Shown here: piece after piece, positions 45,001-48,000 of the stretch | How positions within the stretch are numbered: position 1 is the first letter of the stretch | How the letters are laid out: every line of letters begins with the position of its first letter | From: Escherichia coli | GTDB taxonomy: Bacteria > Pseudomonadota > Gammaproteobacteria > Enterobacterales > Enterobacteriaceae | Strand: one strand, 5' to 3' | Length of the DNA: 64,000 bases | NCBI RefSeq assembly: GCF_044324875.1 | Contig: NZ_CP172185.1 | Made by a program: the position numbers

Positions 45001-48000
45001 GTGTAATCAACAACGGTTGGGAAGAAAACAATGCCGATCACCACATTCGTTCGCTCAACATCAAAACGCCGGGCGCTGAGCAACTGATTATGAATCTCTC
45101 AGGTGGAAATCAGCAAAAAGCCATTCTGGGCCGCTGGTTATCGGAAGAGATGAAGGTCATTTTGCTGGATGAACCTACGCGCGGCATTGATGTTGGTGCT
45201 AAGCACGAAATATATAACGTGATTTATGCGCTGGCGGCGCAGGGTGTGGCGGTGCTGTTTGCCTCCAGCGACTTACCTGAAGTCCTCGGCGTTGCCGACC
45301 GGATTGTGGTGATGCGCGAAGGTGAAATCGCCGGTGAATTGTTACACGAGCAGGCAGATGAGCGTCAGGCACTGAGCCTTGCGATGCCTAAAGTCAGCCA
45401 GGCAGTTGCCTGAGTAAGGAGAGTATGATGTCTTCTGTTTCTACATCGGGTTCTGGCGCACCTAAGTCGTCATTCAGCTTTGGGCGTATCTGGGATCAGT
45501 ACGGCATGCTGGTGGTGTTTGCGGTGCTTTTTATCGCCTGTGCCATTTTTGTCCCAAATTTTGCCACCTTCATTAATATGAAAGGGTTGGGCCTGGCAAT
45601 TTCCATGTCGGGGATGGTGGCTTGTGGCATGTTGTTCTGCCTTGCTTCCGGTGACTTTGACCTTTCTGTCGCCTCCGTAATTGCCTGTGCGGGTGTCACC
45701 ACGGCGGTGGTTATCAACCTGACTGAAAGCCTGTGGATTGGCGTGGCAGCGGGTTTGTTGCTGGGCGTTCTCTGTGGCCTGGTCAATGGCTTTGTTATCG
45801 CCAAACTGAAAATAAATGCTCTGATCACGACACTGGCAACGATGCAGATTGTTCGAGGTCTGGCGTACATCATTTCAGACGGTAAAGCGGTCGGTATCGA
45901 AGATGAAAGCTTCTTTGCCCTTGGTTACGCCAACTGGTTCGGTCTGCCTGCGCCAATCTGGCTCACCGTCGCGTGTCTGATTATCTTTGGTTTGCTGCTG
46001 AATAAAACCACCTTTGGTCGTAATACCCTGGCGATTGGCGGGAACGAAGAGGCTGCGCGTCTGGCGGGTGTACCGGTTGTTCGCACCAAAATTATTATCT
46101 TTGTTCTCTCTGGTCTGGTATCAGCGATAGCCGGAATTATTCTGGCTTCACGTATGACCAGTGGGCAGCCAATGACGTCGATTGGTTATGAGCTGATTGT
46201 TATCTCCGCCTGCGTTTTAGGTGGCGTTTCTCTGAAAGGTGGCATCGGAAAAATCTCATATGTGGTGGCGGGTATCTTAATTTTAGGCACCGTGGAAAAC
46301 GCCATGAACCTGCTTAATATTTCTCCTTTCGCCCAGTACGTGGTTCGCGGCTTAATCCTGCTGGCAGCGGTGATTTTCGACCGTTACAAGCAAAAAGCGA
46401 AACGCACTGTTTGATGTTTTTTTCCACAACAATTTAGCGTTTTTTCCCACCACAGCCAGCCGCCACAACGGTTGGCTGTTCTTCGTTACAAATGGCGACC
46501 CCCGTCACACTGTCTATACTTACATGTCTGTAAAGCGCGTTCTGCGCAACACAATAAGAAAAGAGAAGGAGGAGAACCGGGTGACAGAACCGTTAACCGA
46601 AACCCCTGAACTATCCGCGAAATATGCCTGGTTTTTTGATCTCGATGGAACGCTGGCGGAAATCAAACCGCATCCCGATCAGGTCGTCGTGCCTGACAAT
46701 ATTCTGCAAGGACTTCAGCTACTGGCAACCGCAAGTGATGGTGCATTGGCATTGATATCAGGGCGCTCAATGGTGGAGCTTGATGCACTGGCAAAACCTT
46801 ATCGCTTCCCATTAGCGGGCGTGCATGGGGCGGAGCGCCGTGACATCAATGGTAAAACGCATATCGTTCATCTGCCGGATGCGATTGCGCGTGATATTAG
46901 CGTGCAACTGCATACGGTCATCGCCCAGTATCCCGGTGCGGAGCTGGAGACGAAAGGGATGGCTTTTGCTCTGCATTATCGTCAGGCTCCGCAGCATGAA
47001 GACGCATTAATGACATTAGCGCAACGTATTACTCAGATCTGGCCACAAATGGCGTTACAGCAGGGAAAGTGTGTTGTCGAGATCAAACCGAGAGGTACCA
47101 GTAAAGGTGAGGCGATTGCAGCCTTTATGCAGGAAGCTCCCTTTATCGGGCGAACGCCTGTATTTCTGGGCGATGATTTAACCGATGAATCTGGCTTCGC
47201 AGTTGTTAACCGGCTGGGCGGAATGTCAGTAAAAATTGGCACAGGCGCAACTCAGGCATCATGGCGACTGGCGGGCGTACCGGATGTCTGGAGCTGGCTT
47301 GAAATGATAACCACCGCATTACAACAAAAAAGAGAAAATAACAGGAGTGATGACTATGAGTCGTTTAGTCGTAGTATCTAACCGGATTGCACCACCAGAT
47401 GAGCACGCCGCCAGTGCCGGTGGCCTTGCCGTTGGCATTTTGGGGGCACTGAAAGCCGCAGGTGGACTGTGGTTTGGCTGGAGTGGCGAAACAGGGAATG
47501 AGGATCAGCCGCTAAAAAAGGTGAAAAAGGGTAACATTACGTGGGCCTCTTTTAACCTCAGCGAACAGGACCTTGACGAATACTACAACCAATTCTCCAA
47601 TGCCGTTCTCTGGCCTGCTTTTCATTATCGCCTCGATCTGGTGCAATTTCAGCGTCCTGCCTGGGACGGCTATCTACGCGTAAATGCGTTGCTGGCAGAT
47701 AAATTACTGCCGCTGTTGCAAGACGATGACATTATCTGGATCCACGATTACCACCTGTTGCCCTTTGCGCATGAATTACGCAAACGTGGGGTGAATAATC
47801 GCATTGGTTTCTTTTTGCATATTCCTTTCCCGACACCGGAAATCTTCAACGCGCTGCCGACATATGACACCTTGCTTGAACAGCTTTGTGATTATGATTT
47901 GCTGGGTTTCCAGACAGAAAACGATCGTCTGGCGTTCCTGGATTGCCTTTCTAACCTGACCCGCGTCACGACGCGTAGCGCAAAAAGCCATACGGCGTGG

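Follow-up and report, generated by a model that had tools for sequence, protein, structure and literature searches.

The otsB–otsA junction of Escherichia coli: a GTG-started otsB and a 26-nt gene overlap

Introduction

The otsB and otsA genes described here overlap by 26 nt, and otsB is read from a GTG codon—both properties are already known from current genome annotation and the literature. The feature is the junction and start region of the well-known E. coli otsBA operon, and it is ordinary and explained. We analysed it within a stretch of 64,000 nt from contig NZ_CP172185.1, hereafter the window. Our joint reading, which we hold to be very probably correct, is that otsB starts at the GTG, that the overlap is a by-product, and that OtsA is initiated mainly independently. 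The operon makes trehalose for osmotic, stationary-phase, and cold protection.

The otsBA Locus and Its Annotation

47356..47381, + strand: otsB/otsA overlap, 26 nt, with otsA in the +1 frame relative to otsB
46581..47381, + strand: otsB, trehalose-6-phosphate phosphatase, 266 aa, GTG start and TAA stop (RefSeq annotation)
47356..48780, + strand: otsA, trehalose-6-phosphate synthase, 474 aa (RefSeq annotation)

The RefSeq/PGAP annotation of three E. coli genomes coincides in its coordinates with otsB and otsA of the window; locus positions 1782-2582 (otsB) map to window 46581-47381, and locus position 2557 (the otsA start) to window 47356. In these annotated genomes araH, otsB, and otsA follow one another in order, then uspC on the opposite strand, and a sigma-S promoter with the conserved -35 TGGCGA and CTATACT is present upstream. 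Read directly, the DNA has the otsB stop codon TAA at 47379-47381 and an in-frame GTG of the otsB frame at 46581-46583. The preliminary description had located this stop, and the otsA ATG (47356) within the last otsB codons, correctly to the base; the 26-bp overlap that it reported is real and is also found in the RefSeq annotation. Mechanical calls differ at both starts: the longest otsB frame in the ORF list is 46524..47381, or 285 aa counted from the first ATG, and the mechanical otsA ORF begins at GTG 47347, with the annotated ATG at 47356-47358.

The otsB Start Codon

46568..46574, + strand: otsB Shine-Dalgarno sequence GGAGGAG, within AAGGAGGAG, with a 6-nt spacer AACCGG to the GTG

A start of otsB at the GTG is supported by its Shine-Dalgarno sequence, the family model, conservation, the leader, the transcription start, and an IS10 insertion. 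OtsB would initiate at GTG 46581 beside an unusually strong Shine-Dalgarno sequence: the pairing predicted with the 16S 3' end is -11.7 kcal/mol, within the best 0.12% of the 3310 NTG triplets on the + strand, whereas the upstream ATG 46524 scores +1.5 kcal/mol, which amounts to no Shine-Dalgarno sequence. Counting both strands, GGAGGAG has one copy in the 64-kb window against 3.4 expected from shuffles, so the heptamer is not enriched and it is the position 6 nt before the GTG that counts. The fold around the start is unremarkable compared with shuffled sequence (z = -0.21). Among Enterobacterales, the Shine-Dalgarno sequence is kept as AAGGAGGA (AGGAGG) together with the GTG in 40 of the 41 loci in which the otsB start could be placed; the sole exception to GTG is the ATG of Rahnella victoriana.

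The protein evidence points to the same codon. OtsB is assigned to HAD-IIB by NCBIfam NF007560 and TIGR00685 (307 bits for the latter, cut-off 68), and model positions 1-266/266 of NF007560 fall on residues 20-285 of the 285-aa ORF (539 bits, cut-off 327). Most homologue matches span 93% of the 285-aa query, which is equal to 266/285, and the column of V20 is the first residue in the annotated OtsB of E. albertii, Citrobacter, Salmonella, Klebsiella, Enterobacter, Kosakonia, and Leclercia (NCBI). HAD motif I (DxDGT) is present near the N-terminus and invariant in the homologue alignment—D39, D41, G42, and T43 of the long ORF correspond to residues 20-24 of the 266-aa protein. The protein probably acts as a phosphatase on trehalose-6-phosphate, since it is about 98% identical to P0001, which represents the main cluster of E. 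coli OtsB (266 aa, 4030 member sequences).

Neither otsB nor otsA appears in the available portions of the supplementary data of a tetracycline ribosome profiling study (PMC4909307) and an N-terminomics study (PMC13245402), and a literature search returned no paper pairing otsB with ribosome profiling.

Promoter, Leader, and the Upstream ATG

46493..46520, + strand: sigma-S (RpoS)-dependent otsBA promoter; -35 TGGCGA at 46493-46498, 16-nt spacer, C-TATACT -10 at 46514-46520
46526..46580, + strand: otsBA mRNA leader, 55 nt, from a probable transcription start at G46526

The otsBA -35 is named as TGGCGA in PMC2744996, and the promoter block GTCACACTGTCTATACTTA is kept in Escherichia, Citrobacter, Salmonella, Kosakonia, and Phytobacter; the window and K-12 differ immediately before the -35, reading TTACAA and TTGCAA respectively. 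The otsBA promoter was not called by a simple sigma-70 promoter scan, as is expected of a sigma-S promoter with a poor -35. The same scan reported a terminator-like araFGH hairpin at 46452-46479.

According to PMC2744996 and PMC2922620, both citing Becker and Hengge-Aronis 2001, otsBA translation starts at +56. If the GTG at 46581 is +56, then +1 falls on 46526, the final G of the upstream ATG (46524-46526); a K-12-derived locus (L003) is identical to the window in this region. Leader length ranges from 42 to 67 nt among genera, in steps that are not multiples of 3. An Rfam scan of 46380-47480 at permissive thresholds returned no family, and a scan of the whole window returned nothing but DsrA, C0465, and three tRNAs. 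A hairpin recurs in the leader; it might govern how stable the mRNA is, and could in that way contribute to the selected design considered below for the whole region.

The alternative to the GTG is a 285-aa OtsB read from ATG 46524, with a 19-residue N-terminal extension. This ATG is the earliest start codon in the open otsB frame, it is shared by K-12, O157:H7, and the window, and some automatic gene calls in relatives are extended as well (P0011, 286 aa; P0009, 279 aa); however, the KEE(N/D)RV likeness among these extended calls is the Shine-Dalgarno sequence in translation. The codon is unconserved, and close relatives, including one E. coli strain, have in-frame stops and frame-breaking indels: the ATG at -57 is missing from Escherichia sp. 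MOD1-EC7003, Escherichia sp. E1V33, E. albertii, E. coli E69, and many Citrobacter; a stop lies in frame 7 codons upstream in E69, E1V33, Kosakonia quasisacchari, and Phytobacter; and a 1-nt deletion in the MOD1-EC7003 leader shifts the ATG out of frame. An IS10 element at +12/+13, between the upstream ATG and the GTG and thus within the supposed extension, still drives functional expression of otsBA, with fitness at high osmolarity rising to about 1.25 (PMC2744996), which argues that the 19 upstream codons are dispensable. Given the published transcription start, as quoted in those two papers, the ATG would be absent from the mRNA; read-through from araFGH could in principle carry it, though as an ATG without a Shine-Dalgarno sequence. 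Together with the family model and annotated homologues, whose first position is the GTG, these observations leave the longer form next to no credibility; at the level of sequence comparison it is already refuted. The preliminary description had preferred the GTG preceded by GGAGGAG over the upstream ATG, and both the homologues and the published transcription start support that choice; the alignment of OtsB N-termini, which it had named as a possible refutation, came out in favour of the GTG.

The otsA Start Site

47343..47347, + strand: otsA Shine-Dalgarno sequence AGGAG, inside otsB (codons Arg-Ser), with an 8-nt spacer to ATG 47356

The otsA ATG has a predicted 16S 3' end pairing of -6.9 kcal/mol, within the best 3.5% of the 3310 + strand NTG triplets. 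An ATG with a purine-rich, AGGAG-type Shine-Dalgarno sequence is present in all 42 loci, and most of the 42 junctions have (A/C)AGGAG 8 nt upstream of it—the exceptions are CAGAAG (L018), TAGGGAG (L033), TGAGGAG (L037), and TCGGAGG (L045). The start region, folded as 47300-47420, is no more structured than shuffles (z = +0.31), and its centroid structure leaves the Shine-Dalgarno sequence free of pairing. An RNA structure hiding the otsA ribosome-binding site was rejected on this fold.

A start farther upstream, at GTG 47347 or ATG 47350, would give an overlap of 35 or 32 nt. GTG 47347 is the first codon of the mechanical otsA ORF, and most Enterobacteriaceae junctions have an in-frame ATG or GTG at -6 of otsA; against this, the AGGAG ends at 47347 and would overlap the GTG while lying only 2 nt from ATG 47350, at a proper Shine-Dalgarno distance the pairing energies for the two codons are -2.9 and -3.4 kcal/mol, and Erwiniaceae junctions have no start codon at -6 or -9. 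The 474-aa OtsA (GT20, by NCBIfam NF007513 and TIGR02400) is matched by NF007513 over 1-474/474 (1046 bits, cut-off 759) and by TIGR02400 at 610 bits (cut-off 565); PDB 2WTX and 1UQT align to it over 1-474, and it is the form of E. coli OtsA that was crystallised. We regard either upstream start as highly improbable.

Content and Conservation of the Overlap

Read in the otsA frame, the overlap encodes Met1-Ser8 and runs two bases into the Asn9 codon; read in the otsB frame, it comprises the last two bases of a Tyr codon, Glu-Ser-Phe-Ser-Arg-Ser-Ile, and the stop, so that the OtsB tail reads YESFSRSI. The 42 junctions fall into four classes: a 26-nt overlap (27 loci), a 4-nt overlap (9), a 4-nt gap (3), and a 12-nt gap (3). 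The overlap is constantly 26 nt in Enterobacteriaceae. In Erwiniaceae, otsB enters near-identical junction DNA in each of the three reading frames, with a 26-nt or 4-nt overlap or a 4-nt or 12-nt gap as the outcome, and the OtsB residues right before the overlap are variable, with indels.

From the three-frame reading of the Erwiniaceae junction, the overlap looks like a by-product of a dispensable OtsB C-terminal tail. This poorly conserved and apparently dispensable tail runs beyond the otsA start to the first in-frame stop, a TAA whose bases are the third of OtsA codon Ser8 and the first and second of Asn9—hence 26 nt. Within the 26-nt-overlap group, third-codon positions are less variable in otsA codons 2-8 than in codons 10-14; this reduced variation would fit a degree of selection acting on the overlap or the start region, rather than a pure by-product.

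A programmed frameshift at the A6 run 47326-47331, yielding an OtsB-OtsA fusion as suggested by P0002, was considered and rejected as a designed feature, since the A-run is unconserved in Salmonella.

Possible Translational Coupling of otsA to otsB

The preliminary description took the overlap to imply translational coupling, and this is not established: a Shine-Dalgarno sequence precedes otsA itself, the RNA at its start is unstructured, and overlap length varies in relatives. Coupling is plausible but unproven, and it does not follow from the overlap alone. We took as the mark of coupling a stop/start spacing of -4 to +3 nt or a masked downstream ribosome-binding site (PMC12548453); here the spacing is -26 nt, and no structure masks the otsA ribosome-binding site. 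Our literature search returned no specific statement on the otsB-otsA overlap or coupling, and no coupling experiment for the pair.

In its tight form, coupling would have ribosomes that terminate at UAA 47379-47381 slide back about 23 nt to AUG 47356, or expose it, such that the phosphatase would accompany OtsA whenever OtsA is synthesised and toxic trehalose-6-phosphate would not accumulate. The otsA start and Shine-Dalgarno sequence do lie within otsB; the stop is at most 26 nt from the start in every locus examined; the phosphatase-then-synthase order and the tight junction, whether an overlap (4 to 26 nt) or a gap (no more than 12 nt), are kept across Enterobacterales; and synonymous variation is lowered in the overlapped otsA codons. 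Trehalose-6-phosphate toxicity is reported in mycobacteria (PMC5148154). PMC12548453 speaks to both sides: re-initiation upstream of a stop is known for the coat-lysis pairs of the RNA phages fr and MS2, which couple at -38 and -50 nt, whereas in E. coli reporter series coupling falls steeply as the overlap lengthens, and one systematic study saw no coupling at -25 nt. The good Shine-Dalgarno sequence of otsA, at its 8-nt spacer and with no stable structure concealing the start, argues against tight coupling, as do the Erwiniaceae, where junction DNA is conserved but overlap length is not; on balance we find it rather unlikely. OtsA would most probably be initiated mainly via its own AGGAG, in an unstructured stretch inside otsB. 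Ribosomes ending otsB may contribute re-initiation or hold the otsA site open, and the share of OtsA made through such coupling would be expected to be modest at -26 nt.

A broader proposal is that the weak GTG with its near-perfect Shine-Dalgarno sequence, the otsB-before-otsA order, and the buried otsA start form a selected design conserved across Enterobacterales. If true, this design would fix the OtsB:OtsA ratio or bias translation to stress, and trehalose-6-phosphate would never accumulate; we give it a small chance, lower than that of tight coupling. As a separate observation, the GTG is retained in 40/41 loci though one transition gives ATG, which we count as leaving room for such a design.

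Implications

Beyond annotation hygiene the feature matters little—the curated annotation is right, and taking the first start codon mechanically makes otsB 19 codons and otsA 3 codons too long. The comparative data serve as a worked example of separating a real GTG start from an upstream ATG, and of how a long gene overlap can come from a dispensable C-terminal tail instead of serving to couple translation. For the design of otsB deletions, the last 39 nt of otsB contain the otsA start and Shine-Dalgarno sequence.

Comparison with Known Systems

The closest known system is otsBA of E. coli K-12 (otsB, b1897; otsA, b1896), the operon of RpoS-dependent trehalose synthesis. It shares with the window the neighbourhood of araH, otsB, otsA, and opposite-strand uspC, the GTG start, the 26-nt overlap, and the promoter and leader sequence; the difference from K-12-type otsB is allelic only, at about 2.3% of bases (18/801, engineered start excluded). 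Two of the loci, L004 and L005, carry an engineered cassette, on which a literature search returned no paper.

OtsB of Salmonella enterica (PDB 6UPB-6UPE) is alike over its full length: window OtsB 1-266 aligns with chain 1-267 (6UPB), and the Salmonella protein opens with MAEPLT at the matching position and closes with the overlap-encoded YESFSRSI. Salmonella loci have the GTG, Shine-Dalgarno sequence, and 26-nt overlap as in the window; in contrast, OtsB identity is about 73%, and the leader is of another sequence, 52 nt long.

Classical coupled pairs include trpE-trpD at -1, NTGA pairs at -4, galT-galK at +3, and MS2/fr coat-lysis at -50/-38 (PMC12548453). Like otsB and otsA, they are co-directional, lie in one operon, and have a downstream start near or inside the upstream gene. 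Unlike them, otsB-otsA is spaced at -26 nt, outside the most efficient range of -4 to +3, and otsA has a strong Shine-Dalgarno sequence of its own with no masking structure.

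The otsBA Locus

The region examined here is the E. coli otsBA operon proper, already known and annotated as the preliminary description proposed, with nothing new in the layout itself; the overlap and start coordinates given there are all exact when read against the sequence and the ORF list. The relevant features are listed below, with otsA in the +1 frame relative to otsB and uspC on the strand opposite to otsBA.

Features of the otsBA region (window coordinates)
46414: end of araH, upstream of otsB
46452-46479: terminator-like hairpin between araH and otsB
46493-46498: -35 element TGGCGA (basis: PMC2744996, PMC2922620)
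46514-46520: C-TATACT, 16 nt past TGGCGA
46524-47381: first long open frame (otsB), with ATG 46524, in-frame GTG 46581, and stop TAA 47379-47381
46568-46574: GGAGGAG, otsB Shine-Dalgarno sequence, with a 6-nt spacer (AACCGG) before GTG 46581
47343-47347: AGGAG, otsA Shine-Dalgarno sequence, 8 nt before ATG 47356
47347-48780: second open frame (otsA), overlapping the first; the mechanical ORF call begins at GTG 47347
47356-47381: 26 nt common to otsB and otsA

RefSeq annotation of strain MEW, O157:H7, and the K-12-derived ET12567 corresponds to otsB at 46581-47381 and otsA at 47356-48780, with an identical GTG start and an identical 26-nt overlap in all three. The OtsA equivalog model NF007513 (NCBIfam) is aligned over positions 1-474 of 474, and solved structures are available for E. 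coli OtsA of 474 residues (2WTX, 1UQT) and for Salmonella OtsB (6UPB; N-terminus MAEPLT, C-terminus YESFSRSI).

The 1.4-kb stretch 46300-47700 is matched in 5417 of 5426 complete E. coli genomes. Just 51 of the 5417 reach an identity of 99% or more, led by the ivory gull strain MEW at 99.9%; O157:H7 stands at 98.5% and ET12567 at about 97.5%. With so few close matches, the window belongs, at least at otsBA, to an E. coli lineage that has been sampled less. In ET12567 (NZ_CP045457.1; fetched locus L003, 3405-4732) otsB is interrupted by the IS4-like ISVsa5 (IS10-type) and annotated as two pseudogene pieces, and in O157:H7 6535NalR (L002, 629-1615) the araH directly 5' of otsB is an annotated pseudogene with an internal stop. 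Elsewhere in the window, DsrA sRNA (606-692), C0465 sRNA (55377-55454, minus strand), and a tRNA-Gly/Cys/Leu cluster (36849-37151), found with Rfam and ARAGORN, are consistent with the expected E. coli map near the flagellar/chemotaxis region.

The otsB Start Codon

The GTG at 46581 is strongly supported as the otsB start. The preliminary description had chosen it over the ATG 57 nt upstream, and the choice is borne out by homologues at the protein and DNA levels, the family model, leader evolution, and Shine-Dalgarno pairing; asked of both proteins and DNA, the question of whether homologues favour the upstream ATG was answered in favour of GTG. The OtsB equivalog model NF007560 (NCBIfam) aligns over positions 1-266 of 266 with residues 20-285 of the 285-aa ORF, which puts the first residue of the family exactly at the GTG codon (V20). 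When that ORF is the query, almost every homologue covers 93% of it (266/285), and the first residue aligns to the V20 column in all NCBI-annotated OtsB of E. albertii, Citrobacter, Salmonella, Klebsiella, Enterobacter, Kosakonia, and Leclercia. Two database homologues (P0011 and P0009) are longer automatic gene calls; the sole conserved part of their extension is KEE(N/D)RV, which is translated AAGGAGGAGAACCGGGTG, the Shine-Dalgarno sequence itself.

At the DNA level, 48 otsBA loci were compared (one genome per species), and the otsB start could be placed in 41. GTG with AGGAGG 5-7 nt upstream occurs in 40 of these, from Escherichia to Pantoea and Izhakiella; the exception, Rahnella victoriana, starts with ATG. 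The -57 ATG is absent from Escherichia sp. MOD1-EC7003, Escherichia sp. E1V33, E. albertii, E. coli E69, and many Citrobacter. Just 7 codons 5' of the GTG, an in-frame stop with no start codon between occurs in E69, E1V33, Kosakonia quasisacchari, and Phytobacter, and in MOD1-EC7003 one nucleotide lost from the spacer between Shine-Dalgarno sequence and GTG throws the ATG out of frame. The distance from the conserved CTATACT box to GTG spans 42 to 67 nt, in steps that are not multiples of three. Together these losses, stops, frame breaks, and non-triplet lengths indicate that the stretch from ATG to GTG evolves as a non-coding leader. For GTG 46581, pairing to the 3' end of 16S rRNA is predicted at -11.7 kcal/mol (best 0.12% of NTG triplets on the same window strand); for ATG 46524 the value is +1.5 kcal/mol, that is none. 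The deeply conserved GTG beside a near-perfect Shine-Dalgarno sequence could reflect selection on OtsB output, a reading that we consider unlikely.

Promoter and Leader

Two otsBA promoter papers from one laboratory (PMC2744996, PMC2922620) adopt the transcription start of Becker and Hengge-Aronis (2001), with TGGCGA as the -35 element, and in that numbering place the otsBA translation start at +56. Across the entire promoter/leader region the window and K-12-derived sequence do not differ, so the published numbering applies directly. Counting GTG 46581 as +56 puts +1 at G46526, the final base of the upstream ATG, and so leaves that ATG off the sigma-S transcript. Assigning +56 to ATG 46524 was rejected; the start site would precede its own -35 box. 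An IS10 insertion between +12 and +13 is reported to switch on otsBA in rpoS-null strains and to make them fitter at high osmolarity (PMC2744996, PMC2922620). This site falls between 46537 and 46538, within the putative 19-codon extension, which is therefore not required for function.

The leader also contains a hairpin at 46529-46553 (+4 to +28), in which GCGC 46535-46538 pairs with GCGC 46544-46547 around a GTTCT loop, with an outer stem of 46529-31/46551-53. Leaders of Citrobacter, Salmonella, Kosakonia, and Phytobacter have hairpins at the equivalent site with other sequences and longer stems; it is missing from Citrobacter sp. Res13 and C. gillenii, both with a 42-nt leader. The hairpin has no Rfam match, and a role in mRNA stability is possible. 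Within its 5' arm, at 46536-46538, lie the otsBA up-mutations published for rpoS-null E. coli, namely IS10 at +12/+13 and C-to-T at +11 (PMC2744996, PMC2922620); by our own reading, the latter change (C46536) would also yield TAAAGT, a -10-like hexamer.

otsB on Short Contigs of Unrelated Assemblies

K-12-type otsB with GTG changed to ATG is found on two short contigs, in 'Peptoniphilaceae bacterium RUMC2' (L004, CAJUSY010000019.1, 1-1675) and 'Brucella thiophenivorans DSM 7216' (L005, NZ_NNRJ01000023.1, 1-1261). It lies 10 nt past the stop codon of a low-GC gene whose product ends in ...GVTFLMPN*, linked via TAAGGAGGAAAAAATG, and is followed by AT-rich DNA and a gene beginning MCGIVGFID. Both assemblies appear to be contaminated by an engineered expression cassette; a literature search on such a cassette found no paper. 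The arrangement may correspond to the usp45-otsB design used in Lactococcus lactis engineering.

The otsB-otsA Overlap and the otsA Start

Spacing at the junction falls into four classes among 42 loci: a 26-nt overlap (27), a 4-nt overlap (ATGA; 9), a 4-nt gap (3), and a 12-nt gap (3). The 26-nt overlap is present in every Escherichia, Citrobacter, Salmonella, Kosakonia, and Phytobacter locus. Junction DNA hardly varies among Erwinia, Mixta, Pantoea, and relatives (GGTAAGGAGTCAAGGTT ATG AGTCGYTTAGTNGTCGTATCTAAC), yet otsB arrives in three frames. In the otsA frame a TAA within the Shine-Dalgarno sequence ends it, leaving a 12-nt gap; in the second frame the TGA of ATGA does so, giving a 4-nt overlap. 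In the third, the stop either arises from a CAA-to-TAA change (4-nt gap) or is the TAA made by the otsA Ser8 and Asn9 codons (26-nt overlap). OtsB residues directly before the overlap are variable, with indels—Escherichia sp. E1V33 has a 5-codon insertion (extra KRDNK). The simplest reading is that OtsB can do without its last 10 to 20 residues, and that overlap length depends on the position of the first stop in the arriving otsB frame.

Third-position entropy in the 26-nt group points to some constraint: it is 0 to 0.97 bits for otsA codons 2-8, 1.2 bits at Ile11, and up to 1.7 to 1.95 bits at the four-fold-degenerate Arg10, Ala12, Pro13, and Pro14. Codons 2-8 also vary rather little where the long overlap is absent, so their low variation may reflect start-region selection or shared ancestry as much as dual coding. 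The database protein P0002 (289 aa, cut short by a contig end) corresponds to one A lost from the A6 run 47326-47331 in the otsB tail; such a loss brings otsB into the otsA frame, which has no stop at the E. coli junction, and creates an OtsB-OtsA fusion ORF. Since Salmonella does not conserve the A-run, a programmed shift is less likely than a mutation or an error in sequencing the homopolymer.

The AGGAG ending at 47347 overlaps GTG 47347 and lies 2 nt before ATG 47350 and 8 nt before ATG 47356. All 42 junctions have the motif ATG-AGT/AGC/GGT-CG. at the same site, most with (A/C)AGGAG 8 nt 5' of the ATG; the four exceptions are CAGAAG (L018), TAGGGAG (L033), TGAGGAG (L037), and TCGGAGG (L045). 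Erwiniaceae lack an in-frame start codon at -6 or -9.

Translational Coupling

The preliminary description took the overlap to imply translational coupling; by itself it does not, and given the junction geometry the inference is somewhat disfavoured. A literature search for a coupling experiment on the otsB-otsA pair found none. OtsA initiation is most likely mainly independent, with ribosomes finishing otsB adding a modest contribution at most—a reading based on a well-placed Shine-Dalgarno sequence of its own, the lack of extra structure, and reviewed spacing data. Predicted pairing of that sequence is -6.9 kcal/mol (best 3.5%), it is unpaired in the centroid structure, and the 121 nt around the otsA start fold no better than shuffles (-18.7 versus -19.6 ± 2.9 kcal/mol, z = +0.31).

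Coupling works best at spacings of -4 to +3 nt, and a longer overlap reduces it faster than a longer gap (PMC12548453, a 2025 review). Tight coupling of otsA to otsB is unlikely. The review describes one systematic series in which coupling was absent at -25 nt; however, it also describes the coat-lysis pairs of phages fr and MS2, which couple at -38 and -50 nt.
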